The notes below the pieces were generated by a model that saw nothing but the letters and a program-made list of their open reading frames with translations, had not been told where the DNA came from and did not search any database. The position numbers and the translations under genes are program-made. Of a stretch of DNA of 64,000 bases, positions 1-57,587 are shown in pieces (the stretch's first letter is position 1; every line of letters begins with the position of its first letter). Origin of the DNA: Bacteroidales bacterium H4 (GTDB lineage Bacteria; Bacillota; Clostridia; Lachnospirales; Lachnospiraceae); NCBI GenBank assembly GCA_963626805.1, contig CAVFXS010000063.1:1984-65983 (forward strand), in the 5' to 3' direction.

Positions 1-1
1 T

Positions 2-613
2 CAACGAGAACCGGAGACGGTTGAAACGGGAGATTCAGACAATAAGCGCGAAAATTTAAACGATCATCTCGGAAACATCGATATTATTAAGCGTCCCGAA
101 AGAACTCCGTCAAAAGGTTTCTTCTACGGAAAGGGCGATGAAGGCAGCACTGAATCAACAAGCACTAAGGGGACTTTGGGCTCGACAGGTGATCCTGGAT
201 TAAGAATCTTAAAAGGAAAGCGTAAAAGAAAAAAACTTGATTCGCATCGCGGTCTGCCAGATCCAGAAGGAAAAGATGTGGTAACGCAAAAGAAACCAGG
301 AGGGGAATCCAACTGTCCTTTGAAGAATGTTCGTATCATAAAAAAGAGCACTGGTATGTATTCTGTCAATTTTGAAATACCACACGATGTGGATTATGGA
401 AGGATTGAGCTTGTGACGGTTGGCGAAAATGGGAAATCGAATCGAATTCACATTAAAAGTGCCGAGTCTGCCGGTGGCTGCAAAAGTGCCAAAAAGAGCG
501 GAGATTATATAGAGGCCGAGGGCTTATCATCCTCAAACAAAGTTAAAATTGCAGTACAGCTTGCTGACTCAAGGGATTATGCTATGGAGGTAAACGTTTA
601 TGAACATAACTAA
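2..613 (+). CDS. Hypothetical protein, C-terminal part only (ORF open from the window edge); first visible gene of a 3-gene operon
   Basis: Frame 2 has no stop from nt 2 to TAA at 611-613, so the listed 176..613 ORF is only the tail of a longer protein. The next gene's start overlaps its 3' end. No family recognised. Confidence 0.6.
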   Translation, partial: QREPETVETGDSDNKRENLNDHLGNIDIIKRPERTPSKGFFYGKGDEGSTESTSTKGTLGSTGDPGLRILKGKRKRKKLDSHRGLPDPEGKDVVTQKKPGGESNCPLKNVRIIKKSTGMYSVNFEIPHDVDYGRIELVTVGENGKSNRIHIKSAESAGGCKSAKKSGDYIEAEGLSSSNKVKIAVQLADSRDYAMEVNVYEHN

Positions 614-1478
614 TAGACTGTTTGCCTATCCGGTACTTAGCGATGAAAAGGCTGATTATAAGGAATCGATATTCAACGTTGATTTCGAACAAGCTATGCA
701 GGGTGTCAACAGCTTGCAGCTTAATTTTGACATTGCGATGAATTGTCGAGAACTGCAAGAGATGATCTTAAATGGTCAGGCAGAATATGTCATCCATTTG
801 GAGTGCACTACAACTGCATACAGAGAAGTCCTGCATTCAGTTTCAAAACATATAGAACACATCATCCCAATCAGCAGAATCAACGGAACATTGGATGCCG
901 TGGCATTTGTAATTCTAAAAAAGCGTATATCGAAATTTTACAGTTCTGACTGGGTGGAAGACTTTGATGGCATGACATTTGATTTGTTTCAGGGGTCGAT
1001 ATTAGCATATCAAAATTTGACAAGCCTTGATATCACAAAGGATTATGAGGAATTCACTAATGCTGGTTCAATCTTCTCGATTTACAAGAGAATCACTGAC
1101 GAGGATAAGCCAGCGGAGATAATGCTCGATTCAGCTAAAATTAGAATAGGCCTTGGCAGCCATGATTATGATGTTTATTCGGTCTATTCTGCGAAAACAG
1201 AGTTACAATCACTCTTCCATTCAATGCTGATTTTACCGGCGCTGGTATATGTGTTTGAAGAACTAAAGCAAGACGATGGAGAAGAAACTTATCATAACAA
1301 AGAATGGTTTTTGGCTTTGGAGAAATCCTATGCTAAAAGAGGAATGAGATTCATGGATGAGGTTCTTAATAGCGAAAAGACTTCATATCAACTCGCTCAG
1401 GAGGCGATGGAACTTCCATTAACTAAGGCACTAAACCAAATTCCGATATTCTTTGACACTACAGAGGAGGACTCGTGA
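600..1478 (+). CDS. Hypothetical protein (292 aa), middle gene of the 3-gene operon
   Basis: ATG at 600 preceded by GGAGG (586-590). It overlaps the upstream ORF by 14 nt and the downstream start. No recognisable motifs. Confidence 0.7.
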   Translation: MNITNRLFAYPVLSDEKADYKESIFNVDFEQAMQGVNSLQLNFDIAMNCRELQEMILNGQAEYVIHLECTTTAYREVLHSVSKHIEHIIPISRINGTLDAVAFVILKKRISKFYSSDWVEDFDGMTFDLFQGSILAYQNLTSLDITKDYEEFTNAGSIFSIYKRITDEDKPAEIMLDSAKIRIGLGSHDYDVYSVYSAKTELQSLFHSMLILPALVYVFEELKQDDGEETYHNKEWFLALEKSYAKRGMRFMDEVLNSEKTSYQLAQEAMELPLTKALNQIPIFFDTTEEDS

Positions 1479-2524
1479 TGAAATTGTACATAATGAAACG
1501 AGATGCTCTGGAAACATTAAAAGCTAATCTACCAGCAGTCTACGGAAAATACTATACAGAGAAATCTAATAAGTGGATATGTGACATTTGTGGCGAAGAT
1601 CCGTTTATTGAATTTAAGGATGTGACCGAGTTTACATTGGCAAGCTTAAACTCGGATCTGACACCAGGTGAAATAGACCTTGAAAATTGCAAAATATTAT
1701 ATGAAAAGCTGATGTTTCTAAGCGAGTCGCAGGCAAGTGACGAGAGGCTGTGGGCAGGACTTACACATGCAACATTTTATGAATACATGAGAGAGCGCTG
1801 GGGATACGGGCATGGAAAAAAGCCGAAGAGTGCTGAGAAAGAAGTCGGAGCTATCCAGACGAGGTTTTTTTATAAGAACTCAGGCAGGAGTGGATTTTAC
1901 AGGAATACACTTTCAAAATGCTGGTGGGTTGGTCATAACACATATAATCCCAATAATGCAAGCAATCATTTTGAAAGTTTAGATATTATTGGTAGTAATG
2001 ACCTTAACTCAAAAATCAATGAATTCTTTTATAACTTTACTTTTTCTTCAAATCCGGAAGTTATGTCTGCAATTATTGAGGCGCTTAGGGTATTCAAGGA
2101 AGAAGGAAAAGCTCTTTCTGTAAGAAATCATATTCGTCCGGCAATGTCATACCTGAACGCGGTTGGAGGCTCAGTGGTTATAGATTGCCTATCTAAGGAA
2201 GAAATAACAAGCATTTTTTCAGATGCTATTGTTGCTATTATGCAGGGAGATACGCCTTCGTTGAATCTGGATGGTGGCATAGAAGAAGACATTGACTATT
2301 CAGTAGATGACGAATCCACCCCTGGAGAAGAACCGGATGAGCCAGAAGTAATATTGGGATGCAAGGTCGTTATTCGAAATGAACATAACGAAACCAAAAC
2401 ATACAAATATGATTTAATGAATGGTACTTTACCTAAAGCACTTGAAGTGTTCACAGGCCATAAAGCAGGAGATGTAATAGAGATGCTTGGGTGCGAGTGG
2501 AAGATAGAAGACGTGATTTTTTGA
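1478..2524 (+). CDS. Hypothetical protein (about 348 aa) with a GreA/GreB C-terminal-like tail
   Basis: ATG 1478 (or GTG 1475) overlaps the TGA of the previous gene, with GGAGG at 1466-1470. The C-terminal ~60 aa (VILGCKVVIRNEHNETKTYKYDL...GHKAGDVIEMLGCEWKIEDVIF) follow the GreA C-terminal domain pattern as I remember it. The N-terminal ~280 aa are not recognised. Confidence 0.7.
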   Translation: MKLYIMKRDALETLKANLPAVYGKYYTEKSNKWICDICGEDPFIEFKDVTEFTLASLNSDLTPGEIDLENCKILYEKLMFLSESQASDERLWAGLTHATFYEYMRERWGYGHGKKPKSAEKEVGAIQTRFFYKNSGRSGFYRNTLSKCWWVGHNTYNPNNASNHFESLDIIGSNDLNSKINEFFYNFTFSSNPEVMSAIIEALRVFKEEGKALSVRNHIRPAMSYLNAVGGSVVIDCLSKEEITSIFSDAIVAIMQGDTPSLNLDGGIEEDIDYSVDDESTPGEEPDEPEVILGCKVVIRNEHNETKTYKYDLMNGTLPKALEVFTGHKAGDVIEMLGCEWKIEDVIF

Positions 2525-2840
2525 TAAATCGTACGGCGTGTATTTGAGAAGTTGATTGACCTGTTTCCGCATACCTTTATAGGGCAGACCAGTTTCCTTC
2601 ACGCTTGACATCAATGGTGGCGTCTCGGGGCAAGAGCAACCACTCTGTCGAGCAAAGCGAGAGCAGAACTTCCGTAGATTATTTTGTGCCACGAGTGCCA
2701 AGCACGAATCCTTATTTCCTGGGCTTTTAGGAACTTTGCATCTGGCTTTAACAATCAAAGTACAATTTCAATCCTAAAATGGAAAGTCAGACTGTGAATT
2801 GAATGTTGGGAAAAAATAAAGAAGAATGGGAAGAGATGTT

Positions 2841-3251
2841 ATGCAGCACGAATGCAGGATAACAGTTCTGGAAACAAAGGTATTCCCGGAACTGCAGGAA
2901 AAATATCTGGCTGATCCAAAGTCAGGACCGTGTCCCTGCTTCAAGGCAGGCGATACATTCTTATTAAAGAGAACGCCACAGCAGGATGATTTCTATCATC
3001 TGATGAACGGCAAGTTCTGCGGTGAGGCGTGGGACGCAGTGAGCCGATATGTCTATACCGCTTTGCAGGGCGGCTCCATCATGCATGGCTGGACAAATGA
3101 CGAGCGCATGATGATTACCTGCTGCAATGACGGGACAAGACCTGTCATATTCAAAATAGAAAGAATCGACATCCCGGAGAGTGAAGAAGAAAGGCTATGG
3201 CTGGAGACACAAAATTTCAAGAACACTGCGGAGGATGCTTATACGGGATAA
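2841..3251 (+). CDS. TIGR04076-family small Cys-rich protein
   Basis: Pattern ITVLE...GPCPCFKAGDTF...FCGEAW...ITCCNDGTRPVIFKIERI matches my recollection of TIGR04076 proteins. The start could be 2826 or 2841. Confidence 0.6.
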   Translation: MQHECRITVLETKVFPELQEKYLADPKSGPCPCFKAGDTFLLKRTPQQDDFYHLMNGKFCGEAWDAVSRYVYTALQGGSIMHGWTNDERMMITCCNDGTRPVIFKIERIDIPESEEERLWLETQNFKNTAEDAYTG

Positions 3252-3278
3252 AAGAATCAGGATTTCAGGAGGTTGGCA

Positions 3279-3803
3279 ATGAAGATTGTAATCATAAATG
3301 GAAGTGCAAGAAAGGGAAACACATTAACAGCGATTCAGGCATTTACTGAAGGCGTCGCAGAAGGCAATGAGATAGAAATCATCGCACCAGAAAAGTTAAC
3401 TATTGCTCCATGTAAAGGCTGCGGAGTCTGTCAATGCAGCAAGGGCTGCGTAGATCAAGACGATACGAATCCGACCATAGATAAAATCGTTGCAGCGGAT
3501 GTGATTGTATTTGCCACACCGGTTTATTGGTGGGGAATGTCAGCACAGCTGAAGCTCATCATTGATAAATGCTATTGCAAGGGGCTCCTTCTGAAAAATA
3601 AGAAGGTCGGTGTCCTTGTTGTCGGAGCTGCTCCGGTCGGCAGCATCCAGTATGAACTAATCAATAAGCAGTTCCAGTGTATGGCAGATTACCTATCCTG
3701 GAATATGCTGTTTCAGAAATCCTATTCTGCAAGCGGCAGAACAGACCTAAGCCATAATACAGATGCTATTGCTGAACTAAAGGAACTTGGTTTCTGCTTA
3801 TAA
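3279..3803 (+). CDS. Flavodoxin-family / iron-sulfur flavoprotein-like NAD(P)H-dependent FMN reductase
   Basis: N-terminus MKIVIINGSARKGNT, a CxxCxxC-like cluster (CKGCGVCQCSKGC), and VFATPVYWWGMSAQLK typical of this family. GGAGG lies 6 nt upstream of ATG 3279. Confidence 0.7.
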   Translation: MKIVIINGSARKGNTLTAIQAFTEGVAEGNEIEIIAPEKLTIAPCKGCGVCQCSKGCVDQDDTNPTIDKIVAADVIVFATPVYWWGMSAQLKLIIDKCYCKGLLLKNKKVGVLVVGAAPVGSIQYELINKQFQCMADYLSWNMLFQKSYSASGRTDLSHNTDAIAELKELGFCL

Positions 3804-3822
3804 ACAAGGATAGGATTGAATT

Positions 3823-4863
3823 ATGAATGATATCGTTAAAAGAAAAGATGGAGAAGTGGAAGCTGTCGATAATAAGGTCATGCAAATAACACCGGAGACA
3901 GCAGACATAAATTTTGAAGATGTGCTGGCAAAATTGACGCAGTATGTGAATGTAGCAGATGCAATTTTTCATGTTGAGAAAACGGTAGAATATGTCGTAC
4001 AAATACCGCTTAAATACAAGGATGCTTTTCAAACTGGAGAGGTATTTATCAATCAAAACCAAAAGACTGGTGTAATGTGGCCCACATTGTATCGTACCTT
4101 AGATTCAGGGAAAAGACAGTTTGTTGATAATATGCCGATAAAACCTGAGCAGCTTACTCAAGGTAATCCATTTGAAAGCATGGCAATCAGCTATCATAAT
4201 TTGTATATGCAGCAGCAAATAAATAATCTTGCAGAGGTTATGAATCAAACCTACAAGGTTGTTGAGCGCATCGAACAAGGCCAATTAGATGATAGGATTG
4301 GACTACTGATTGCGGGTAGGGACCAGGTATTGTTGGCATTGCACTCTGCCCCGGAAAATAGGATTTTAGCTATTGAACAGGGGCGCAGTAATATGCTTAT
4401 AGCACAGAAACAGCTTCTTCAGACATTTAAGCGTAGGGTTGAAAATTTCGATCTTATTCCAGAAAGCGGATGGAGCAGATTTTGGCTTGAATTTAAACAT
4501 AGTGGGACGTTTAAACAGAGGGACAAGGAGTTTTCGGATATTCAAGAATACTATTCTTTATATCTTCAAGCTACGCAAATGGTGGCAGCGTCATACGCAA
4601 TAAGTGGTGAAATAGAGGCGGCTCAACAGGTGTTTGAAATAGCTGAGCAGGACATGAAGGAGATTAATTTTGATGCTATAAAAACGCTTGGGTTCATTCA
4701 TAAAAATAATTCAGAGATGTTATATAACCACGCTGACGAATATGTGGCAGTCGAACGTGAAATATGCATGAATGAGGCACAGGAATATGATGCCATAAAT
4801 ATTGAAATCAGTGGTGCCAAATTATTGGAGGTATTTGAAAATGAAAGAACAAAAAAGATTTAA
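3823..4863 (+). CDS. Hypothetical protein (346 aa), unknown family
   Basis: Long ORF beginning 19 nt after the flavoprotein stop. Its 3' end overlaps the start of a small TM ORF. The C-terminal half looks largely helical; no catalytic motif recognised. Confidence 0.7.
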   Translation: MNDIVKRKDGEVEAVDNKVMQITPETADINFEDVLAKLTQYVNVADAIFHVEKTVEYVVQIPLKYKDAFQTGEVFINQNQKTGVMWPTLYRTLDSGKRQFVDNMPIKPEQLTQGNPFESMAISYHNLYMQQQINNLAEVMNQTYKVVERIEQGQLDDRIGLLIAGRDQVLLALHSAPENRILAIEQGRSNMLIAQKQLLQTFKRRVENFDLIPESGWSRFWLEFKHSGTFKQRDKEFSDIQEYYSLYLQATQMVAASYAISGEIEAAQQVFEIAEQDMKEINFDAIKTLGFIHKNNSEMLYNHADEYVAVEREICMNEAQEYDAINIEISGAKLLEVFENERTKKI

Positions 4864-5026
4864 GACCCAGAAACTTGATAGTAAGGACTATGAGAAGACA
4901 GAAGAAGGGGCAAAACTATTGAAGAACGGTGGCTTGGTATTGTCTGCCGTGGTCTTTGCTGGTGGAGTAATCAAAAAATGCGGACCTAAGATATTAAAAG
5001 GAATAAATGTAATTCGTAAAATTTGA
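4841..5026 (+). CDS. Small single-pass membrane protein (61 aa)
   Basis: ATG 4841 lies 9 nt after GGAGG (4827-4831) and overlaps the upstream gene by 23 nt. It has a charged N-terminus followed by the hydrophobic segment GGLVLSAVVFAGGVI. It ends 13 nt before the methyltransferase start. Confidence 0.55.
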   Translation: MKEQKRFKTQKLDSKDYEKTEEGAKLLKNGGLVLSAVVFAGGVIKKCGPKILKGINVIRKI

Positions 5027-5039
5027 GGAGGCACTGCCG

Positions 5040-6533
5040 ATGTATGCACAAGCAGCGATAAAAAGAAATATCATACCTCGTAACGGTGCATACCGTATCG
5101 TTAACAGGGATGTGCATTTTTGCACACCCCCGTGTTCATCGTTACGGAGTAAGAAACACACTTCGTTAGGTCGTATCACTTTAGACACGGCAACCGAGCC
5201 GTGTATAGGTAGTGGTGCGTTCTATTCTGCACTTTTGAATACGGTGGATAAAAAGACCATTCTAAATGCCACAGGGATTGAGATTGATTCAGAGTACTAT
5301 GATTGTGCGAAAAAGCTTTGGGAAGAATCCGGTATTGAATTGCTCCATGGGGACTTCACAAGAATAACACCAAACAGTAGATACAATCTGGTAATTACAA
5401 ATCCTCCATATGTCCGACACCATTACCTTACAAAAGAAGTCAAGGCATATTTAGCAAAAACTGAGAAAGATGAAATAGGGATAGCTTTATCTGGCTTAGC
5501 AGGGTTATATTGCCATATTATTTTATTAGCTCATAAATGGCTTTCACCGAATGCAATTTGTGGATGGCTGATACCAAGCGAATTTATGGATGTAAACTAC
5601 GGAAGTGCGATAAAGGAATATCTCCTCAATCATGTTCACCTTCTCAGAATACACAGGTATAACCCCGAATCTTCAATGTTTTCAGATGCGTTGGTCTCTT
5701 CATGTGTGGTGTGGTTCAAAAACGAAATTGTCGAAGAAGACTATGAAATCGAGTTCTCTTTAGGAGGCACTCATGATGTGCCTATGATGAGTAAGCTGAT
5801 ACATAAGTCAGATTTGATTGCTGAGAGAAAATGGACGCGTTTCCCAGAAAAGCAGATTCGAAGTAATGAAACTTCTAATGCTACGTTGGGTGATTTTTTT
5901 GAAATCAAACGGGGTCTCGCAACTGGCGACAACAGTTTCTTTATCATGAGCCACGACAAAACACAAGAGCTGGGCCTTGATATGTCGCTGCTAAAGCCAA
6001 TTCTGCCGAGTCCAAGATATTTAAAGACGGATCTCGTCAACTCAGATGACAATGGAATGCCACAAATTGATCAACAATACTTTTTGTTGGACTGCGATTT
6101 GCCGGAGCAAGAACTTGAGAAGGACTATCCCACTATATGGAGATATTTGCAGAGTGGAATAGATACGACAAGCAAAAAATATCTATGTAAGACCAGAAAA
6201 ATATGGTACTTGCAAGAACATAGAGATGCGACATATTTCTTGTGTTCATATATGGGGAGAGGTAAGGAGCATGACTTGCCGGTTAGATTTATATTAAACC
6301 TATCGGAGGCCATTGCCACTAACTCATATTTGATGCTATATCCCCAAAAAGGCTTACAAGAAATCATATCAGCCAACCCAAGATCTGTTTACAAAATATG
6401 GGAAGCACTGAAGAGTATTAATGGTAGTGAGATTGAAGAAGAAGGTCGCATTTACGGCGGTGGGTTAAAAAAAATTGAGCCTAGGGAATTAGCTAAGGTT
6501 TCATGTGATGATCTAGTGCGCATTTGCACATGA
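5040..6533 (+). CDS. N6-adenine DNA methyltransferase, gamma class (Eco57I/TaqI-like)
   Basis: FxTPP-like motif (HFCTPP), motif I EPCIGSGAF, then motif IV ITNPPYVRHH in gamma-class order. A long C-terminal target-recognition-like region follows. GAGGAGG lies upstream of the ATG. Confidence 0.85.
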   Translation: MYAQAAIKRNIIPRNGAYRIVNRDVHFCTPPCSSLRSKKHTSLGRITLDTATEPCIGSGAFYSALLNTVDKKTILNATGIEIDSEYYDCAKKLWEESGIELLHGDFTRITPNSRYNLVITNPPYVRHHYLTKEVKAYLAKTEKDEIGIALSGLAGLYCHIILLAHKWLSPNAICGWLIPSEFMDVNYGSAIKEYLLNHVHLLRIHRYNPESSMFSDALVSSCVVWFKNEIVEEDYEIEFSLGGTHDVPMMSKLIHKSDLIAERKWTRFPEKQIRSNETSNATLGDFFEIKRGLATGDNSFFIMSHDKTQELGLDMSLLKPILPSPRYLKTDLVNSDDNGMPQIDQQYFLLDCDLPEQELEKDYPTIWRYLQSGIDTTSKKYLCKTRKIWYLQEHRDATYFLCSYMGRGKEHDLPVRFILNLSEAIATNSYLMLYPQKGLQEIISANPRSVYKIWEALKSINGSEIEEEGRIYGGGLKKIEPRELAKVSCDDLVRICT

Positions 6534-6680
6534 TGCATCTTAAAATGCAGTGTCGTATCTCTTAGTGGGCGTATACTTCTTTGCAATGTTTGGGCTCTAT
6601 CTCTTATCAATTTGTTGTCCGCACAAGGACATTCGTCGCTAAGAAGTTAAGACTCTCCTAATCCGGAAGGGGCTGATACC

Positions 6681-7562
6681 ATGAGACGCATTTGGAACAA
6701 CAAAAAATATATTGTGTCAAGAGCCACTGCATTTACAGGTAGCGCATATGCCATGTTGGGCTTTGTTGGAACACTTGTACCTTTAGACGAATGTCTACCG
6801 AACTCTATGCCTATGTTAATGCGTGTCATTATCAGCGCAGCAGTATTGATATGCGTATGGCTTGTTTTCTTCATCGGAGCATCATTGTATGTTTTATGTA
6901 AAAATAAGGTTTGCGTGCTTTCAGCTAACAATGGTCATGCCTTATATCTTCAATATGGAGACATATTTAGTGCTGAGGAAGTTGCAAATCCTGGTATACG
7001 TCGGAATATTGTAATTCCAGTCAACCGGTGCTTCGATACTCATGTAGACAATCAAATTGTTTCCGAACAAACTCTACACGGAATGACTTTGAAAAGGCTT
7101 TATTCTTCTGGAATGTTTACAGAGGAAAGCCTGTCCAGCCTAATAGAAACCCGTTTGTTGCAAGAGAAATGCGAGAATCTTTCAAGCTCTGACAAGCCTG
7201 CTGGAAAGCTCAAGCGATACCCTGTTGGAACCATCGTCGATGTGGCCGGAGTTGATGGAGAGCATTATTTTCTTTGGGCGTTAAGTACATTCGACAGCAA
7301 CTTGAAAGCACACACAACGATGCAGGATTATACATTGGCTGTGCAGAAATTGATCGAAGCGTGCAATTCAGAATCGGAAGGATTTCCAATAGTTTTGCCG
7401 CTTGTTGGAACCGGACTTTCTAGGATAAAAAAGGACCAATGTGATGTCCTTCGGTATTTGATTAATGCTTTCAGATTAAACAAGGCGGAAATCAATTCCG
7501 ACATTCACATTATCATTCGGGAAGAGTTAAAAGACGAAATTGCTATTATGAGCATTAAGTAA
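6681..7562 (+). CDS. thsA: ThsA-like effector: two N-terminal TM helices plus a Macro-like domain (type II Thoeris)
   Basis: Two hydrophobic helices (AFTGSAYAMLGFVGTLVPL; VIISAAVLICVWLVFFIGASLYVL). The C-terminal region (NIVIPVNRCFDTHVDNQIVSEQTLHG...VLPLVGTGLSRI) resembles the ThsA-type Macro domain. A TIR-like gene follows immediately. Confidence 0.6.
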   Translation: MRRIWNNKKYIVSRATAFTGSAYAMLGFVGTLVPLDECLPNSMPMLMRVIISAAVLICVWLVFFIGASLYVLCKNKVCVLSANNGHALYLQYGDIFSAEEVANPGIRRNIVIPVNRCFDTHVDNQIVSEQTLHGMTLKRLYSSGMFTEESLSSLIETRLLQEKCENLSSSDKPAGKLKRYPVGTIVDVAGVDGEHYFLWALSTFDSNLKAHTTMQDYTLAVQKLIEACNSESEGFPIVLPLVGTGLSRIKKDQCDVLRYLINAFRLNKAEINSDIHIIIREELKDEIAIMSIK

Positions 7563-7572
7563 GGAGGTCAAA

Positions 7573-8094
7573 ATGGCAACTTATAGAACTCGGACTTATA
7601 TTGCTGGCGATTGGGATCACGATAAAGATGCCGTGGATCAGCTACACAAATGGAATGACAGCAACTATTGGAATCTTCATTTTACCGATGCACACGACCT
7701 GACATCCTCAAGAGATAGCAGCCTTAATTGCACAATCAAAGCTTCTCTAAAAACACGCATGGACGCATCTAATACGTTTGTGCTGATTGTCGGAGATCAA
7801 ACCGATTCAATTACTGCTGGCGGTTGTCAATGGTGTAGAAGCTACAACAGTAATGGCCGATACTGTGTAAGAGAACATAGCGTTGACTATAGAAGCTATG
7901 TTAAGTTTGAATGTGACAAAGCAGTTGATGCCGGAATTAAAATAATAGTCCTATATAACGACACAAAGATTGATAGGACAAAATGCCCTGATGCCGTTAG
8001 GTATCGAGGAACTCACACTGCCATGGTTTATAAGGGCAGCGATGGCAAGTACTATTGGGATTATCAATCCGTAAAGAATGCTTTTGATGCATAG
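7573..8094 (+). CDS. thsB: ThsB-like TIR-like (DUF1863-type) protein
   Basis: YIAGDWDHDKD...NLHFTDAHDL...FVLIVGDQT...YVKFECDKAV...IIVLYN matches the DUF1863/ThsB TIR-like pattern, including a candidate catalytic Glu. AAGGAGG RBS; the start is 10 nt after the thsA-like stop. Confidence 0.7.
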   Translation: MATYRTRTYIAGDWDHDKDAVDQLHKWNDSNYWNLHFTDAHDLTSSRDSSLNCTIKASLKTRMDASNTFVLIVGDQTDSITAGGCQWCRSYNSNGRYCVREHSVDYRSYVKFECDKAVDAGIKIIVLYNDTKIDRTKCPDAVRYRGTHTAMVYKGSDGKYYWDYQSVKNAFDA

Positions 8095-8123
8095 AAGCAT
8101 AGAATAAATAAAATACCGTACTC

Positions 8124-8159
8124 GAATCCGTCTATCTTCATAGGTAGGCGGATTTTTTG
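8124..8159 (+). terminator. Rho-independent terminator after the TIR-like gene
   Basis: Hairpin GAATCCGTCTA...TAGGCGGATT (with G-U wobbles) followed by a run of six T. Confidence 0.6.
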
Positions 8160-8186
8160 TTTCCCAAATCCAAGGAGGTAACGCCC

Positions 8187-9419
8187 ATGCCAAACTACAA
8201 ACCCATCATCCCGCCGGAGCAGCAATCAGAGAAAGAAAAGAAGCTGCTGGCTGAACGGGAGCGCATCGACACCAAGCTGACCTATCACAAGCACCGGCTC
8301 AAGGCGCTTGAGCATGAGGAAGCGGAGCTTGTAAGGAAAGCCCGCAACCATCGCATTTTCACCCGTGGCGGTATGCTGGAGTCCTTTCTTCTGAAGCCTA
8401 CATTGCTGTCAGATGATCAGGTGCATTCGCTGCTGAAAATCATATTTCACAAGCCGGAGATCAACAAAATCCTGAATCACATGATCTCCATTGAGCCGCC
8501 TGTAGAGGAAGAACCGGAGCTTCCAGCGGATGTGCCGCCCGATCCGGCAATTTCGGAAGAAGCACGCAATGCCTTTGGTTATACGGATGATGCTATGCTT
8601 CCGCTGACGAAGGAGCGTGCCATGGAGCTATTTGAACGGGATGTCCCCGTATATCTGCTTTACGGAGACAATACTGAGGCGATGGCATTTGAACACACCG
8701 AGATTCTGAATCATGACGGCATCTTCGGAATTGACCGTGCGGACTGGGAGGCAGTCAAGGAGCAGTTCCCGATTGCTACGGAAAACAAGTGGCAGAAAGC
8801 TTTTCTGGAGAATCCTGCCGACAGCTATTGCATCTATCAGCTGAAGCGAACTGATGAAACGGCGGAGCTTCTTTTTATGAGCAGCAATTACCTGAAGGAG
8901 CACAATCTGGATATTTCCTATGAAAACTACGATGCGGTTTACTCCGGCGCTTTTTCCGGAAGTGATGATAACCCTACGAAAACGCTAGATGATCTCTACA
9001 TGAAGTTCAATACAGATCGCCCACAGGACTTCACAGGGCACAGCCTGTCCGTCAGCGACATCGTAGCGCTCAGGCAAAACGGCGTGGTATCCTGCCATTA
9101 CGTGGACAGCGTTGGATTTGCTGATGTGCCTGCTTTTCTTCCGGAGAATTATCTCAAAAATGCGGAGATGGCGATGGAGGATGACTACGGCATGATTGAC
9201 GGCATCATTAACAATGGCTCGAAGGAACAGCCGGAATTCAAGGCAAAAGTGCCTGATCTGACAGCACTTTTTGAGGAGGCAAAGCGTACTGTGCAGGAGT
9301 ACAAGGCTTCCCATGATGATGGAAGAAAGCAATCTGTCATAGCAAGGCTCCACACACCGACACCGCCCAGAAACGACAAAACAGCGCAGACGAAAAGCGC
9401 GGAAAGGGATTTACTATGA
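8187..9419 (+). CDS. Conjugative-element-associated protein (YodL / DUF3849 / DUF4316-like)
   Basis: N-terminus MPNYKPIIPPEQQSEKEKKLL and the overall composition resemble proteins carried on clostridial conjugative transposons. GGAGG lies upstream of ATG 8187. Confidence 0.5.
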   Translation: MPNYKPIIPPEQQSEKEKKLLAERERIDTKLTYHKHRLKALEHEEAELVRKARNHRIFTRGGMLESFLLKPTLLSDDQVHSLLKIIFHKPEINKILNHMISIEPPVEEEPELPADVPPDPAISEEARNAFGYTDDAMLPLTKERAMELFERDVPVYLLYGDNTEAMAFEHTEILNHDGIFGIDRADWEAVKEQFPIATENKWQKAFLENPADSYCIYQLKRTDETAELLFMSSNYLKEHNLDISYENYDAVYSGAFSGSDDNPTKTLDDLYMKFNTDRPQDFTGHSLSVSDIVALRQNGVVSCHYVDSVGFADVPAFLPENYLKNAEMAMEDDYGMIDGIINNGSKEQPEFKAKVPDLTALFEEAKRTVQEYKASHDDGRKQSVIARLHTPTPPRNDKTAQTKSAERDLL

Positions 9420-9634
9420 TGAATTTTACGAATGACGAGCTGAATCTCATGTGCATCTACAGTGCCGGAGGAAACCGAGCTGATCTGGTGGAGAAGCTTA
9501 CGGAAATGAAGCATTATCTGGAAAAGGATGAAACAGAGCTGCTGACGCTTACAGAATCGGCACTTGAAAAGCTCTCTAAGATGAGCGATGAGGAATTTGA
9601 GAAGCTGGAGCTTTATCCGGATTTTGATGTGTGA
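9416..9634 (+). CDS. Transposon-transfer assisting family protein
   Basis: MNFTNDELNLMCIY...ALEKLSKMSDEEFEKLEL matches the remembered family consensus. ATGA overlap with the upstream gene. Confidence 0.7.
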   Translation: MMNFTNDELNLMCIYSAGGNRADLVEKLTEMKHYLEKDETELLTLTESALEKLSKMSDEEFEKLELYPDFDV

Positions 9635-9640
9635 TTTTTC

Positions 9641-9680
9641 TATTCCGAAATAAGGTGCAAGCGCACCATATTTCGGAATA
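9641..9680. repeat. 40-nt compound hairpin element, copy 1
   Basis: TATTCCGAAATA-A-GGTGC-AAGC-GCACC-A-TATTTCGGAATA: a perfect 12-bp outer stem enclosing a 5-bp inner stem. Confidence 0.8.
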
Positions 9681-9696
9681 GCTAAAACAATGAATA

Positions 9697-9734
9697 CTTT
9701 TGTCTCAAAAACTATATAGAATTTGAGACAAAAG
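9697..9734. repeat. Perfect 13-bp inverted repeat (CTTTTGTCTCAAA / TTTGAGACAAAAG) with a 12-nt loop
   Basis: Read directly; lies between hairpin copies 1 and 2. Confidence 0.8.
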
Positions 9735-9762
9735 CGATGAGATTGAACTGAAAAAATCCAAT

Positions 9763-9802
9763 TATTCCGATATCAGGTGCAACCGCACCCGTTCTCGGAA
9801 TA
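9763..9802. repeat. 40-nt compound hairpin element, copy 2
   Basis: TATTCCGA-TATCA-GGTGC-AACC-GCACC-CGTTC-TCGGAATA. Confidence 0.8.
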
Positions 9803-9818
9803 AAAAAGCCTTCCCCCA

Positions 9819-9848
9819 TTGACTATTACACTGAATATTGGGTATAAT
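9819..9848 (+). promoter_or_regulatory. SigA-type promoter for the AAA ATPase gene
   Basis: TTGACT (9819-9824), an 18-nt spacer, then TATAAT (9843-9848). It sits between hairpin copies 2 and 3. Confidence 0.55.
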
Positions 9849-9849
9849 A

Positions 9850-9889
9850 TATTCCGACATCAGGTGCAACTGCACCGGTTTTCGGAATG
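9850..9889. repeat. 40-nt compound hairpin element, copy 3 (in the 5' UTR, abutting the RBS)
   Basis: TATTCCGA-CATCA-GGTGC-AACT-GCACC-GGTTT-TCGGAATG. It is followed directly by the GGAGGG RBS and ATG 9901. Confidence 0.8.
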
Positions 9890-9900
9890 GAGGGTGCATT

Positions 9901-11154
9901 ATGGAAATCAAACGTGATGTTTATCTGGATAAGTTGATTCGGAAAAAGAAAAATGGACTGATAAAAGTAGTGACGGGTGTAAGAAGATGCGGAAAATCAT
10001 ATCTGCTGTTTCATCTTTTTCATGATCATCTGTTAGACAGCGGTGTTGCAGAGGATCATATCATAGAAATAGCACTCGATGACCGTAGCAATAAAGAGCT
10101 GCGCGACCCGGATGTCATCTTAAAGTTCATAAAGGAAAGCATAAAGGATAAAGAGGATTATTATATTATTCTTGATGAAGTTCAATATCTGGACGAATTT
10201 GAAGATGTCCTCAATAGCCTGCTGCATATTCGCAATGCGGATGTGTATGTAACGGGCAGCAATTCCAAATTTCTCTCGTCTGATGTGATTACTCAGTTCC
10301 GTGGACGGGGAGACGAGATTCGCGTCTATCCTTTAAGCTTTTCCGAATACGTGTCTGTGTACCAGGGTTCGCAGGATGAAGCGTGGGATGACTATCTTGT
10401 TTATGGTGGTCTGCCGCTCATCTTAACAATGGAAGAAGCCGAGGACAAGGCAGAATATCTTACTTCACTGTTTCAAAAGGTTTATATCTCAGATATCGTT
10501 GAGCGACACAATGTACGAAACAAAGCGGAGCTGGATGAACTGGTAGATGTCCTTGCATCTGCGATAGGAAGCTATACGAACCAAAATAAGCTTGTGCGGA
10601 CATTCAAAAGTGTTAAGAATAAGAATATCAGCGATAAGACGATTAAGAATTATACAGACTATCTGATAGATTCGTATCTTATCAGCAAAGCGGATCGCTA
10701 TGACATCAAGGGAAAGAAATACATTGGAAAGCTGTCAAAGTACTATTTTGAAGATGTAGGACTAAGAAATGCAAGATTAGGCTTCCGTCAGATTGAAGAA
10801 ACGCATTTGATGGAGAATATTATCTACAATGAACTAAGGGTTCGAGGATATCATGTGGATGTCGGTGTGGTGGAATATTATGAAACCAAGGCCGACGGAA
10901 AACGTGGAAAGAAGCAGTTGGAGGTGGATTTCGTTGCCACAAAAGGAAGCGAGAAGTATTATATTCAATCTGCTTTTGCACTTCCGACCGCAGATAAAGT
11001 AAATCAGGAACAACGAGGGCTTTTGAGTATTTCGGATTTCTTCAGAAAAATTGTTGTTGTTGGGGATAATATTAAAGTGCGCCGCGATGAAAACGGAATT
11101 ATTACAATCGGACTGAGGAATTTTCTGCTGGACGAAAATAGTCTGAAACTGTAA
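9901..11154 (+). CDS. AAA+ ATPase with a DUF4143-like C-terminal domain
   Basis: Walker A GVRRCGKSYLL, Walker B IILDEVQ, and a C-terminal region typical of DUF4143 ATPases. The part of the listed ORF upstream of ATG 9901 (9838-9900) covers the promoter and hairpin, so ATG 9901 is preferred. Confidence 0.8.
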   Translation: MEIKRDVYLDKLIRKKKNGLIKVVTGVRRCGKSYLLFHLFHDHLLDSGVAEDHIIEIALDDRSNKELRDPDVILKFIKESIKDKEDYYIILDEVQYLDEFEDVLNSLLHIRNADVYVTGSNSKFLSSDVITQFRGRGDEIRVYPLSFSEYVSVYQGSQDEAWDDYLVYGGLPLILTMEEAEDKAEYLTSLFQKVYISDIVERHNVRNKAELDELVDVLASAIGSYTNQNKLVRTFKSVKNKNISDKTIKNYTDYLIDSYLISKADRYDIKGKKYIGKLSKYYFEDVGLRNARLGFRQIEETHLMENIIYNELRVRGYHVDVGVVEYYETKADGKRGKKQLEVDFVATKGSEKYYIQSAFALPTADKVNQEQRGLLSISDFFRKIVVVGDNIKVRRDENGIITIGLRNFLLDENSLKL

Positions 11155-11182
11155 TCAACAAATTTATAGAGCATATCATTTT

Positions 11183-11218
11183 AGAGCATCGGTCTTAACG
11201 GACTGGTGCTCTTTTTAT
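11183..11218 (+). terminator. Rho-independent terminator after the ATPase gene
   Basis: AGAGCATCGGTC / GACTGGTGCTCT stem (two G-U wobbles) followed by TTTTTAT. Confidence 0.55.
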
Positions 11219-11246
11219 GTCCATTTTGCGAAAGGAGAACTGATCT

Positions 11247-11363
11247 ATGGCAAGTAAATTGCAGGAATACCGACGCATGTCGGAGGAGGCGCAGCGTCAG
11301 CTGACGGGCAGTCTGGAACGCTGGCAGTCCTTCCTGAAAACAGCATCGCGGCTGTATAAGTAA
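11247..11363 (+). pseudogene. Truncated N-terminal fragment (38 codons) of an ArdC-like / ICE large-protein gene
   Basis: AAAGGAGA RBS and ATG 11247. The peptide ...ERWQSFLKTASRLYK* resembles the start of ArdC-type N-terminal domains but stops after 38 aa. Confidence 0.4.
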
Positions 11364-11406
11364 CCTGATTCAGAATATTGTTTCCCCAAGCGATGATTCA
11401 GAGGAA

Positions 11407-11835
11407 ATGGCGCCGGAACAGAGACAGAAGCAGATTGATGAAGTGAAACAATATGTGGAAGAGCTTCGAAAAGAAAATCCGAAGGTGGCGGACATTATGA
11501 CTACCTTGATTGAAGAGATTGAGCAGGATGAGAATAAGTACCGGGGGCAGTCGATTTATAATATAGTAGAAAATATGAAGAAAGACTGCATTGAAAAAGT
11601 AGTAACGGATTTCTGTGTTACCTGGTATACATCAAAAGAGGATGTGATGTATGCTGCTATGCATTATCGAAACGGCGAGATTCCAAATGAGAATGCAATT
11701 AAGATGACTGCAGATTTTACCAGTTATAAGTCAGTACAGGAACATGCGATTCCAAAGTTTAAATATTATACATTGTTAATATCTGAACTTCGAAAGACTT
11801 TGGAGGAAGAGATTAAACCACTTGTGAATCATTGA
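11407..11835 (+). CDS. Hypothetical 142-aa protein, possibly the C-terminal remnant of a larger (restriction-enzyme-like?) gene
   Basis: The reading frame is open upstream of the ATG back to the preceding fragment's stop region, and no clear RBS is present. The helical charged composition recalls C-terminal regions of type I HsdR proteins, but that is only a weak recollection. Confidence 0.35.
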   Translation: MAPEQRQKQIDEVKQYVEELRKENPKVADIMTTLIEEIEQDENKYRGQSIYNIVENMKKDCIEKVVTDFCVTWYTSKEDVMYAAMHYRNGEIPNENAIKMTADFTSYKSVQEHAIPKFKYYTLLISELRKTLEEEIKPLVNH

Positions 11836-11889
11836 TTATTATTTTTTACTGTTTATATCAGCGTAAGCAGCTCAGGATGGAGGTAGCTT

Positions 11890-12816
11890 ATGATAAATGA
11901 TATGAAGAGTGAAAATTTGTTTTGTGACTATTACAGACAGTGGATTGAGGTCTATAAAAAAGATGCAATTCGCGAAGCAACCATGGCAAAATACCGGATG
12001 ACACAGAAGTGGATAGAGAAACTGGTTCCTGATTTAAAGGTGTCAGGGCTTACTCGGACGGCATATCAACAGCTTTTAAATGATTATGCAAAGGAACATG
12101 AACGGCAGACAACCCTTGATTTTCATCACCAGCTAAAGGGTGCAATTCTGGATGCTGTGGATGAAGGATTATTAGAAAGGGATCCAACCAGAAAAGCAAT
12201 CATTAAAGGTAAGACACCAAAGGCCAAAAAGGTCAAATATCTGAATCAGTTTGAATTGCATACGTTAATTGCACATCTTGAAATCAAGGAGCAGGTGAAT
12301 TGGGACTGGTTTATTCTCCTGGTGGCAAAGACGGGAATGCGTTTTTCTGAGGCACTTGCGGTTACTCCGGCAGATTTTGATTTTGCAAGACAGACCTTAT
12401 CGGTAAATAAAACATGGGATTATAAGGGCAAGGGAGGTTTTCTTCCGACTAAAAATAAATCTTCGGTAAGAAAGATACAGATAGACTGGCAGATAGTGGT
12501 TAAGTTTTCGGAATTGGTTAAGAATTTACCGGAGGACAAGCCTATTTTCGTAGGGAAAGAAAAGGTGTATAATTCCACGGTGAATGGTATTCTTGCAAGG
12601 CATTGCAAAGAGTGTTGTATCTCTGTGATTTCGATACATGGACTGCGTCACACACATGCGTCGTTATTATTATTTGCAGGAGTCACGATTGCCAGTGTTG
12701 CAAGGCGGCTGGGGCATGCAAGCATGACAACAACGCAGAAGACATATCTGCATATTATTCAGGAGTTGGAGAATAAAGATGTAGATCTGGTAATGAGAAC
12801 TTTATCAGGATTATAA
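11890..12816 (+). CDS. Tyrosine site-specific recombinase / integrase
   Basis: Catalytic signature GMRFSEAL (Arg), HGLRHTHASLL (HxxR) and LGHASMTTTQKTYLH (His...Tyr). An N-terminal SAM-like domain is present. Confidence 0.85.
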   Translation: MINDMKSENLFCDYYRQWIEVYKKDAIREATMAKYRMTQKWIEKLVPDLKVSGLTRTAYQQLLNDYAKEHERQTTLDFHHQLKGAILDAVDEGLLERDPTRKAIIKGKTPKAKKVKYLNQFELHTLIAHLEIKEQVNWDWFILLVAKTGMRFSEALAVTPADFDFARQTLSVNKTWDYKGKGGFLPTKNKSSVRKIQIDWQIVVKFSELVKNLPEDKPIFVGKEKVYNSTVNGILARHCKECCISVISIHGLRHTHASLLLFAGVTIASVARRLGHASMTTTQKTYLHIIQELENKDVDLVMRTLSGL

Positions 12817-13986: not shown

Positions 13987-14814
13987 ATGAAAAATACAGT
14001 AGTAACATTTCAGAAGGCAAAAAAAGAAGGTAAAAAGATTTCCATGCTGACAGCATATGATTATTCTACGGCAAAGCTGGAGGATGAGGCCGGTATTCAG
14101 GGAATTCTGGTCGGTGATTCACTGGGAAATGTGGTATTAGGATATGAGGATACGATTGCGGTTACCATGGAGGATATGATCCATCACGGAGCAGCGGTTG
14201 CCAGAGGTGCGAAGAACGCATTGGTAGTAGTTGATATGCCGTTTATGTCTTATCAGGTATCGGTAGAAGAGGCGGTTCGGAATGCAGGACGTCTGATGAA
14301 GGAAGGACATGCAGGAGCCGTGAAGCTGGAAGGCGGCGAGAGCGTATGTCCGCAGATCCGGGCAATCGTAAATGCCGGAATCCCGGTCATGGCACATCTG
14401 GGGCTAACTCCGCAGTCAATTCATGCGTTTGGCGGCTTTAAGGTACAGGGTAAGACCGAGGCAGCAGCGAAGAAGCTGTTAGAGGATGCACATAAGGTAC
14501 AGGAGGCAGGTGCTTTTGCATTGACATTGGAGGCTGTACCAAGTAAACTGGCAGCAATGGTAACCGAGCAGTTAGACATTCCGACGATCGGAATCGGTGC
14601 CGGCAACGGCTGTGACGGACAGATTCTGGTATATCAGGATATGCTTGGTATGTTCTCTGATTTCACACCGAAGTTTGTAAAACGGTATGCGAATGTAGGC
14701 GAGGTCATGAAGGACGCATTCCGCGGCTACATCAGTGAAGTGGAATCCGGGGCATTCCCGGCAAAGGAGAATGAATATGCCGTAGATGACAGCGTGATCG
14801 AGAAACTGTATTAA
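13987..14814 (+). CDS. panB: 3-methyl-2-oxobutanoate hydroxymethyltransferase
   Basis: MLTAYDY...GILVGDSLG...VVDMPF...VKLEGG...AHLGLTPQS are canonical PanB motifs. Confidence 0.9.
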
Positions 14815-55635: not shown

Positions 55636-56871
55636 CTACTCATATCGTTCATCAATGACACGTTTTGACTTCTTTTCGCTTCGTGGCAGGACGCCCAACT
55701 CAACGACCTTGACTAACGGCGTGAAGCCGATCTTGCTCTTAACAGTAGCAGCAATGTGGTCACTTAATTCCAGGAAGTCGACACTGCCGTTGGTCTCTAC
55801 ATAGATACGCAGAGTATCCTTGCCATCCAGATGAGAAATACGGATCTGGTACTCGCTGGATACATCAGAGAACTGACGCAGAATCTCTTCAATCTGGCTA
55901 GGGAATACATTAACACCCTTGATCTTCATCATATCATCGGTACGTCCCATAATGACATCCAGACGAGGGAAGTGACTACCGCAAGGACATTCGCCAGGAA
56001 TGATCCGGGACAGGTCATGTGTACGGTAACGGATCAGTGGTGCACCTTCCTTTACCAGAGTGGTGATAACAATCTCACCCATCTCGCCGTCCGGCACCGG
56101 AGCACCTGTTTCAGGATCAATGATCTCAATGTAAATATAATCATCCCAGTAATGCATGCCGCAGTCGTGCTGGCAGCTGATACCGATGCCGGGACCGTAA
56201 ATCTCGGTCAGACCATAAATATCATATAATTCAATGCCAAGCTCGGAAGAGATTCTCTGACGCATCTTGGCACCCCAGCGTTCCGAACCGATGACGCCCT
56301 TTTTCAGATAAATCTTGTCCTTGATACCACGTTTCTCGATTTCCTCTGCCAGTAACAATGCATAAGAAGAAGTAGAGCAAAGAACCGTACTCTTCATATC
56401 CATCATCATCTGCAGCTGCTTATCGGTATTGCCGGGACCCATTGGGATAACCATGGCACCGAGCTTTTCGGCACCGTTCTGGAATCCGATACCGGCAGTC
56501 CAGAGACCGTAGCCCGGAGTTACCTGAATCCGATCCAGATTGGTAATCCCTGCCATCTCATAGCAACGTTTGAACATGATTGCCCAGTCGTCAACATCCT
56601 TGGCAGTATAAGGAATAATGATCGGGAGGCCGGTGGTACCGGAGGAAGAATGGATCCGGACGATTTTCTCTTCCGGAGCGGTCATTAATCCGAGCGGATA
56701 TGCTTCCCGTAAATCCTTTTTCTCAGAGAATGGGAGCTGTTCAAAATCTTCTGCAGAAGAAATCTTTGAAATGCCTGCTTCATGCAGCTTCTTTCCATAG
56801 AAGCTGTCAGCAGAAATCAGAGCTTCAATCTGCTTATTAACATGTGCGATTTGTGTTTCTGTAATCTTCAT
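55636..56871 (-). CDS. paaK: Phenylacetate--CoA ligase family protein
   Basis: PFSEKKDLREAYPLG, HSSSGTTGLP and YGLTE motifs. Sits downstream of iorAB, as is typical. Confidence 0.85.
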   Translation of the reverse strand: MKITETQIAHVNKQIEALISADSFYGKKLHEAGISKISSAEDFEQLPFSEKKDLREAYPLGLMTAPEEKIVRIHSSSGTTGLPIIIPYTAKDVDDWAIMFKRCYEMAGITNLDRIQVTPGYGLWTAGIGFQNGAEKLGAMVIPMGPGNTDKQLQMMMDMKSTVLCSTSSYALLLAEEIEKRGIKDKIYLKKGVIGSERWGAKMRQRISSELGIELYDIYGLTEIYGPGIGISCQHDCGMHYWDDYIYIEIIDPETGAPVPDGEMGEIVITTLVKEGAPLIRYRTHDLSRIIPGECPCGSHFPRLDVIMGRTDDMMKIKGVNVFPSQIEEILRQFSDVSSEYQIRISHLDGKDTLRIYVETNGSVDFLELSDHIAATVKSKIGFTPLVKVVELGVLPRSEKKSKRVIDERYE

Positions 56872-56916
56872 AATGCGTCCTTTCTGTTATGTTATTTTAT
56901 AATAAATGTACTTTTA

Positions 56917-57018
56917 TGCGATATTGTTTGCTGCAATAATGCTATTTACTGCAATAGCGTCATCGGTTGTAATAATGCTATCTGCGGCAATAGCATTGTC
57001 TGTTGAAATATTGCTTAC
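56917..57018. repeat. 18-nt periodic tandem repeat (alternating A/B units, so a 36-nt higher-order unit) in the iorB-paaK spacer
   Basis: Plus-strand units are TGCTGCAATAATGCTATT, TACTGCAATAGCGTCATC, GGTTGTAATAATGCTATC and TGCGGCAATAGCATTGTC, plus partial flanking units. Confidence 0.6.
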
Positions 57019-57587
57019 CGGGTATAATCGAGTGCCCGGAAGTTTAACTCATGGAACCGTTCCGGCAAGGTACGCCGGATGGCATCCTTGATATCCTCTT
57101 CGGTAAGACCGATCTCGCCGGTTCGGATAGCGGCACCGAGCAGAACCATATTTAATACCTTGGCAGAGCCGATTGCCTGGCAGGCAGCATCGCCATCAAC
57201 CAGAGTCAGATTCGGTACCTGAGCCTTCAGGTATTCGATCATTTCCTCACTATGGTAGGAGGCACCCTGCAATGTGGCAGTTACCGGCTGGATGGCACGG
57301 ATGCTGACAACTACGTGACCACCCTTGCGTAAGAATGGAAGCATACGAACAGTTTCTCCCGGTTCGAAGCCGAGGATCATATCTGCCGTTCCGCTTTGGA
57401 TCATTGGAGAATAGAGATTATCACCTAAGCGCAGATGGCTGAAAACACTTCCGCCACGCTGGGCCATACCAATCGTTTCCGCACTCATAACCGGAATGTT
57501 TTTCGCCATGGCGGCTGAGGCAATCAGCTTGGAAGCAAGCACGGTTCCCTGACCGCCGACTCCGCACAACAGAATATTCTTATTCAT
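57015..57587 (-). CDS. iorB: Indolepyruvate ferredoxin oxidoreductase subunit beta
   Basis: MNKNILLCGVGGQGTVLASKL N-terminus. GGAGG RBS, with ATG 57587 overlapping the iorA stop by 8 nt. Confidence 0.85.
   Translation of the reverse strand: MNKNILLCGVGGQGTVLASKLIASAAMAKNIPVMSAETIGMAQRGGSVFSHLRLGDNLYSPMIQSGTADMILGFEPGETVRMLPFLRKGGHVVVSIRAIQPVTATLQGASYHSEEMIEYLKAQVPNLTLVDGDAACQAIGSAKVLNMVLLGAAIRTGEIGLTEEDIKDAIRRTLPERFHELNFRALDYTR

Follow-up and report, generated by a model that had tools for sequence, protein, structure and literature searches.

The stretch of DNA analysed here, a 64,000-nucleotide (nt) window covering positions 1,984 to 65,983 of contig CAVFXS010000063.1 (assembly GCA_963626805.1, deposited as Bacteroidales bacterium H4 and placed in the Lachnospiraceae), carries three tightly packed plus-strand open reading frames (ORFs) at window positions 3823-6533. 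According to the ORF list these are a large gene encoding 346 amino acids (aa; 3823-4863), a small gene encoding 61 aa (4841-5026) and a gene for a 497-aa DNA methyltransferase (5040-6533). The first two ORFs share 23 nt and, because of this overlap, are probably translationally coupled, and 13 nt lie between the second and the third. A GGAGG sequence at 4827-4831 is positioned 9 nt 5' of the small gene's ATG at 4841, and GAGGAGG at 5025-5031, upstream of ATG 5040, provides the methyltransferase with a strong ribosome-binding site (RBS) of its own. The ORFs, the overlap, the gap and the GGAGG site agree with a preliminary description of the locus, made from the letters alone, which went on to propose an atypical restriction-modification (R-M)-like or methylation-coupled module. 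The data presented here argue against such a module and for two things that are probably unrelated and lie side by side in the cargo of an integrative element: a conserved gene pair and a recombinant methylase.

The preliminary description also held that the spacing implies one transcript. A terminator scan revealed no terminator-like site within 3823-6533, and the first strong terminator downstream, the only strong one in the region, is at 8124-8155. Co-transcription of the three genes is possible and, since no terminator separates them, probable in this strain, but it says nothing about a shared function. A promoter scan gave 9 sites where 14.8 were expected and was uninformative.

The large and small genes form a conserved two-gene cassette

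Neither protein of the pair matched any family in Pfam, NCBIfam, PHROGs or PADLOC, the search of PADLOC-DB v2.0 being made at E≤0.01. The 346-aa protein nevertheless has more than 220 homologues in a 90%-clustered database, all annotated as 'hypothetical', and a profile search recovered 488 clusters at 50% identity (E≤1e-3). Carriers of the family are Lachnospiraceae, Oscillospiraceae, Ruminococcus, Eubacterium, Anaerovoracaceae and other Clostridia, and the sole non-clostridial carrier is one metagenome-assembled genome labelled Bacteroides. A word-index search with the 61-aa protein returned 3 close clusters, too few for an independent survey.

The survey of genomic context covered some 30 related loci from genomes and several from metagenomes (numbered L001 onwards; individual proteins carry the prefix P), and the neighbours of 31 loci were clustered all-against-all. 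Wherever a related locus is complete (L001-L009 and all complete loci among L010-L040), the large gene is followed by a homologous ORF of 47-65 aa, which overlaps it everywhere but in L038, where it starts just past the stop codon. The small partner is also kept beside P0386, which shares 19% identity, and beside P0250, in which the large protein is fused to a methyltransferase domain. Such conservation indicates that the small ORF is a genuine gene and not a chance ORF and, because a homologue is kept at every complete locus, that the pair is real and is the unit of conservation. The window methylase, meanwhile, grouped with none of the neighbours of the 31 loci, and a related methylase was never the next gene after the pair. 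Of the three-gene adjacency envisaged in the preliminary description, only the part concerning the large and small genes therefore stands, and the pair is almost certainly independent of the methylase. The two genes form an autonomous cassette of Clostridia that has spread both vertically and horizontally, and whose composition does not depend on what comes after it.

The 61-aa protein (net charge +9) begins with a basic, conserved segment, continues with 15 hydrophobic residues (GGLVLSAVVFAGGVI) and ends in a basic tail. The same layout is found throughout the family, i.e. a basic N-terminus with the motif KRFxxQxLNxxD(H/Y)K, a G/A/V/L-rich hydrophobic stretch of 13-15 residues and a basic tail, with net charges from +3 to +13. 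The small ORF had been described as a charged N-terminus plus one transmembrane helix; the first of these is borne out as basic and conserved, while the single helix is plausible, the predicted stretch being short.

The cassette recurs in several kinds of locus. In the type I R-M operons of L022, L032, L033 and L034 it is inserted between hsdS and hsdR (hsdM-hsdS-[pair]-(GmrSD)-hsdR, with GmrSD in one), and the order HsdS-pair-GmrSD is found in L020. In L035 the pair follows type III Mod and Res genes, and in L010 and L016-L018 it precedes a 481-502-aa HEC-07-like protein, with GmrSD in addition in L018. The remaining contexts are a position after a prophage tape-measure gene (L011) and positions among housekeeping genes or neighbours without a defence match (L021/L007, L024, L026 and L036-L040). 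A PADLOC scan of 126 neighbour proteins was dominated by redundant HsdS models and confirmed four HsdS neighbours and nothing more. In the window itself the defence neighbours of the pair are PDC-M33B/C upstream and a type II Thoeris system downstream. An HTH_17/MerR-like gene often lies 5' of the pair. Some of the elements that carry the pair encode integrases or recombinases, and one copy lies in a prophage; on viral contigs the pair is rare, with 3 loci in IMG/VR. The prophage case is L011 (2469-7153, Schaedlerella arabinosiphila), where the large ORF is extended to 408 aa and the pair lies 332 nt 3' of a PhageMin_Tail tape-measure gene with one 120-aa gene between them; here the pair may be a prophage moron.

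Other defence systems are known to reside within type I R-M operons, and a GmrSD-like type IV system inside the type I R-M locus of Vibrio cholerae VPI-2 shows the same embedding habit as the pair between hsdS and hsdR (PMC11411939), although the pair proteins have no relation to GmrSD and match no PADLOC v2 model.

Enzyme domains accompany the large protein in a number of relatives. It is fused N-terminally to a NUDIX domain in L028 (5560-7044) and L030 (5572-7056), and to a class I S-adenosylmethionine (SAM) methyltransferase (TehB-like) domain in P0098, P0250 and P0275, while in P0341 the N-terminal ~120 residues of the family, including its α/β domain, are joined to a calcineurin-like phosphoesterase. 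A 2H phosphoesterase-like gene lies directly 5' of the large gene in L036-L040 (5345-5866 in L036), as does a nucleotidyltransferase gene in L012 (4502-5242).

From motif I onward the methyltransferase derives from a XamI-type methylase

In the 497-aa protein, motif I (EPCIGSGAF, residues 53-61) precedes motif IV (NPPYVRHH, residues 121-128), which is the gamma-class order, and the protein matches Pfam Eco57I (7e-14) and the PADLOC model MTase_II PDLC03328 (8e-121); its earlier assignment as a gamma-class N6-adenine methyltransferase is correct. The closest relatives, P0121 (92% aa identity) and P0129 (74%), belong to methylases of 503-520 aa encoded directly 3' of a RE_XamI endonuclease, and the RE_XamI gene precedes the methylase in L041, L042, L044 and L045, an ordinary type II R-M arrangement. 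These XamI/SalI-type systems (RE_XamI, PF09572, with an Eco57I-family gamma methylase containing M_Eco57I_C) share with the window protein the whole course from motif I to the C-terminus, including the NPPY motif IV and the target-recognition region (92% to P0121). They differ in having a cognate endonuclease and a native N-terminus of 69 residues with motif X, both of which are missing from the window.

Homology to the relatives starts at residue 53 of the window protein (residue 70 of P0121), at window position 5196, and the methylase-derived segment (5196-6526) opens at the first motif-I codon and ends just short of the stop codon; over this length it matches L041/P0121 at 91.7% (nt) and 92% (aa) identity. 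What is lacking is the N-terminus conserved among the relatives (…RRKYGQFSTPFALAEEM…), whose 69 residues, motif X included, have been replaced by unrelated sequence; against a profile of 97 family N-termini the first 52 residues of the window methylase score -2.8 bits, which does not exceed the score of shuffled versions. Furthermore, tblastn with the RE_XamI endonucleases of the relatives found no XamI-type endonuclease or remnant in the 64-kb window, in keeping with the earlier remark that no recognisable endonuclease accompanies the methyltransferase. Since the endonuclease is absent and the native N-terminus is replaced, the gene is very probably a remnant or chimera and not part of an R-M system.

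The homologous part is an intact ORF of 445 codons with a ratio of non-synonymous to synonymous substitution (dN/dS) of 0.11 against L041, so the chimeric methylase may be an active orphan. The new N-terminus contains an F-x-T-P string at the usual distance between motif X and motif I, which could be a degenerate motif X. A diverged motif X (HFCTPP) suggested by a weak BLAST extension was rejected, as the profile test indicates no homology to XamI-type N-termini and an alignment with BrxX also begins at motif I; that a frameshifted ancestral motif X persists in another frame ('FLHTPVFIV') is speculation. The sequence GTCGAC, the XamI/SalI recognition site (REBASE, Pfam), occurs once in the 64 kb (window position 55777) against 8.8±3.4 occurrences expected from shuffles. 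This scarcity is a weak hint of activity, and may be explained by restriction pressure in the past or by an overall avoidance of palindromes.

Sister elements share the junction at 5196

Four contigs (L051-L054) are 92-95% identical to the window as far as position 5210 and divergent beyond. In L051 and L052, where identity to window 1-5210 is 94%, the shared sequence is followed by a BrxX/PglX-like pseudogene (L051 6911-8600; L052 7100-8328), a 5'-truncated fragment with in-frame stops that corresponds to residues 310-805 of a 1205-aa protein of the BREX (bacteriophage exclusion) type (E 3e-88). The cargo after it consists of AbiJ_NTD4, SLFN_AlbA_2/HATPase_c_4 and Lon_C genes instead of Thoeris. 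A three-way alignment places the junction precisely: the window equals L051 up to …GACACGGCAACC and, from the next codon onward (GAG CCG TGT ATA GG, E-P-C-I-G), equals the XamI-type methylase. The segment of about 170 nt to the left of this point (5027-5195; identical or 94% identical in L051-L054), which holds the RBS, the ATG at 5040 and the first 52 methyltransferase codons, heads the pglX pseudogene of the sister elements at the same position and with the same motif-I codon join. The likeness to BREX ends there, because pglX in L051/L052 is a truncated pseudogene that is absent from the window, and no other BREX genes were seen.

BrxX does not cover the 5027-5195 segment either, its alignment starting at residue 52. 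BLAST of the segment against all collected loci and the window, and an exact 23-mer scan of metagenome contigs, gave no match; its link to L051-L054 was found through the small-protein search. The first 52 codons of the methylase come from this decayed segment. Since one and the same motif-I codon joins this 170-nt segment to two methylase families, the simplest reading is that recombination took place through the conserved sequence of motif I, and the position just right of the pair would appear to serve as a cargo-exchange point for methylase genes.

Predicted structure of the 346-aa protein

Searches of all PDB chain sequences with two profiles (A1 and A3) returned nothing for the 346-aa family at E≤10, and a phmmer search gave no useful match. 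A first AlphaFold2 model built from 60 sequences was mediocre (predicted local distance difference test, pLDDT, 70) and was replaced by a model from 114 sequences with a pLDDT of 89.6 and a predicted template modelling score (pTM) of 0.69. The protein is soluble and mostly helical, with a predicted fold consisting of an N-terminal α/β domain (residues ~31-112), a 57-residue helix (116-172) and a helical bundle extending to residue 345. The long helix bears an invariant GQxDDR motif (residues 153-158; G153-Q154-x-x-D157-R158). In the β-domain Y57, P62, L89, G96 and P105 are invariant, and the conserved residues there include no acidic/lysine catalytic set.

The preliminary description saw no convincing PD-(D/E)xK, HNH or GIY-YIG motif in this protein, and indeed no Pfam or PADLOC nuclease model matched it; structure prediction, which had been suggested as a way to reveal a hidden nuclease fold, uncovered none among the top 50 PDB fold matches of the pLDDT 89.6 model. 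The top Foldseek match in the PDB, and the only one of high probability, was the same for both independent models, namely JukB (9jht_B; probability 0.98-0.99, E 2e-3 to 9e-3), with an alignment of ~295 columns at a template modelling (TM) score of 0.25-0.32 and a root-mean-square deviation of 16-39 Å. Against viral structures Foldseek returned an uncharacterised Siphoviridae protein alone, at a low TM-score. Readings as a CorA-like split channel, a ClyA/MakA-type toxin or an ESCRT-III/PspA protein were rejected, matches to CorA, MRS2, MakA and CdvB2 having probabilities of 0.2 or less, and a TelA-like reading likewise, as Pfam scans of the window protein, P0098 and ten more members of the family gave no TelA match.

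JukB is a defence effector that acts on membranes as a tetrameric pore (PMC13434031, PMC13282480; preprint 10.1101/2022.09.17.508391), and the jumbo phage killer system JukAB is, like the pair, a two-gene cassette. There are clear differences, however. JukB has no sequence likeness to the 346-aa family at E≤10, although the PDB sequence copy searched may lack 9jht, which was released in 2025. The partner in the pair is a basic peptide of 47-65 aa, and no larger conserved JukA (YaaW)-like partner gene was seen beside the pair, no JukA model having been run. Lastly, the 346-aa family is clostridial, whereas Juk has been reported from Gram-negative bacteria (PMC13282480). The likeness of the predicted model to JukB is best treated as a lead and not as family membership.

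The host element

Window positions 1-12816 represent the cargo end of an integrative element. Upstream of the pair the cargo comprises PDC-M33B/C (600-2524; Pfam and PADLOC matches), a TIGR04076 protein (2826-3251; NCBIfam) and an FMN reductase (3273-3803; Pfam). PDC-M33 is a candidate defence system occupying window 1-2524 (ORFs at 176-613, 600-1478 and 1475-2524), of which M33B (2e-86) and M33C/DUF6339 (3e-122) are complete; the window begins inside the first gene, which encodes 642 aa in the sister locus L051 (506-2434) and is preceded there by an HTH_3 gene. The FMN reductase lies 5' of the pair in three of the four close sister contigs, but not in L053 (the regions corresponding to window 2826-3803 are L051 4719-5674 and L054 27-551). 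Both it and the TIGR04076 gene are absent from more distant loci and are therefore probably unrelated cargo.

Downstream, and directly 3' of the methylase, is the type II Thoeris system (6681-8094; Pfam and PADLOC), composed of a 293-aa ThsA, whose Macro domain is accompanied by a hydrophobic region at the N-terminus, and a 173-aa ThsB with a TIR domain. The element backbone follows, with transfer-type genes (a YodL/DUF3847/DUF4316 protein and TTRAP, 8157-9634), an AAA_14/DUF4143 ATPase (9838-11154) and a tyrosine recombinase (11890-12816). G+C content steps from ~0.41 to ~0.48 just past the recombinase, at about 13000, which probably marks the element end, and chromosomal genes lie beyond, e.g. 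a panB-like gene at 13987-14814. Further along, GC skew is negative and G+C content reaches 0.52 for ~2 kb at 56000-58000, the skew being uniformly positive in the rest of the window.

Discussion

The best explanation of the locus is that a gene pair and a recombinant methylase, unrelated to one another, have come to lie side by side in the cargo of an integrative element. This composite reading is probable overall; confidence is high in the parts that were demonstrated directly and low in the function inferred for the pair. The preliminary description offered three interpretations, and it is supported in part, through the last of them alone: an orphan methyltransferase borne on an integrative and conjugative element next to unrelated genes. 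That option was essentially right, and it can now be added that the methylase is a recombinant remnant and the pair an autonomous conserved cassette.

The first interpretation, in which the three genes constitute one methylation-coupled system and the methylase protects the host from an effector formed by the 346-aa protein and the small membrane protein, draws on a single strand, the 23-nt overlap and 13-nt gap, good RBSs and the lack of a terminator between the genes. It is nonetheless highly improbable, because the methylase is not co-conserved (a related one follows the pair in 0 of ~30 loci), its own relatives sit in XamI R-M pairs, near-identical sister elements diverge from 5196-5210 and carry a dead pglX fragment at the same place, and recombination has left its scar at the 5196 junction. 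As type II endonucleases vary widely and commonly lack a family match, and the large gene is just 5' of the methylase, an ordinary type II R-M system with the 346-aa protein as its unrecognisable endonuclease might also be entertained. This is scarcely credible when the cognate endonuclease of the methylase family is RE_XamI, which is absent here, when the 346-aa family occurs in many loci without any methylase and always with the small membrane-type peptide, and when a confident model consists of an α/β domain and a helical bundle, with none of its top 50 PDB matches a nuclease and with invariant β-domain residues that do not amount to an acidic/lysine set.

A different question is whether the methylase is still active. 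It could be an orphan newly wired into the transcript of the pair in this strain, with an epigenetic or anti-restriction role for the element and no functional tie to the pair, as the intact ORF, motifs I and IV, the whole target-recognition region, the low dN/dS, the strong RBS, the F-x-T-P string at motif-X distance and the single GTCGAC (8.8 expected) would all allow. The family-conserved 69-residue N-terminus is gone, however, its replacement scores as random sequence, the same 170-nt segment heads a pseudogene in the sister elements, and palindrome avoidance is common and no proof of methylase activity; an orphan active in such a role is improbable.

As to the pair, a defence or toxin role is possible, if somewhat short of probable, and action on the membrane is more doubtful. 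A tentative proposal is that the pair is a new membrane-acting cassette of a defence or toxin type. A bolder and less likely version would make it an anti-phage system of two genes, not described before, from Clostridia of the gut and rumen, in which a JukB-like oligomer and a tiny basic peptide permeabilise a membrane on infection. The 346-aa protein would probably oligomerise through its 57-residue helix and, together with the basic small membrane peptide, might disturb the membrane when triggered, for example by phage infection. The NUDIX, SAM-methyltransferase, 2H-phosphoesterase and nucleotidyltransferase add-ons, fused or adjacent in some clades, hint that the trigger could be a nucleotide- or RNA-linked input.

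Several points weigh against this proposal and against the composite reading it belongs to. The JukB match has a low TM-score and no sequence support, and could reflect nothing but a shared layout of a β-domain followed by long helices; the hydrophobic stretch of the peptide is short for a transmembrane helix; and roughly half of the loci have the housekeeping or unidentified neighbours listed above. The function given to the pair is drawn from sequence, context and a predicted model. On the side of the methylase, the intact ORF with its dN/dS of 0.11, the possible degenerate motif X and the probable co-transcription mean that it may be an active orphan.

The main rival to an anti-phage role is that the pair hitch-hikes in variable regions as a toxin-antitoxin or addiction module, as an accessory module for membrane stress or the envelope, or as a gene set serving the mobile element, for instance in exclusion. 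The loci lacking recognisable defence neighbours would fit such a role, as would the similarity of the small basic hydrophobic peptide to small membrane toxins, the association of the pair with integrase- or recombinase-bearing elements and, in one case, with a prophage, and the HTH_17/MerR-like gene often found 5' of it. However, the pair recurs in the gap from hsdS to hsdR, downstream of type III R-M genes and beside GmrSD, HEC-07-like and Thoeris genes, placements that usually mark defence genes, and it is rare on viral contigs; both arguments are associative, in a setting where toxin-antitoxin and defence roles overlap. This alternative is rather unlikely, though it is the one that deserves to be taken most seriously.

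The apparent methylation-coupled module is therefore a juxtaposition, and methylases in defence islands can be recombination scars that should not be read as partners of their neighbours. The motif-I junction common to two methylase families provides a small, concrete example of cargo exchange in such islands. The interesting object at this locus is the unannotated cassette, which is a reasonable candidate for experiments: it is clean, with a large-protein family of ~488 clusters at 50% identity that is always paired with a small basic membrane-type peptide, and it recurs within R-M loci of types I and III in gut Clostridia, whose defences have been little explored experimentally. If it is true that the pair protects against phage, it would be a further system that acts on membranes, perhaps distantly linked to JukB in structure.

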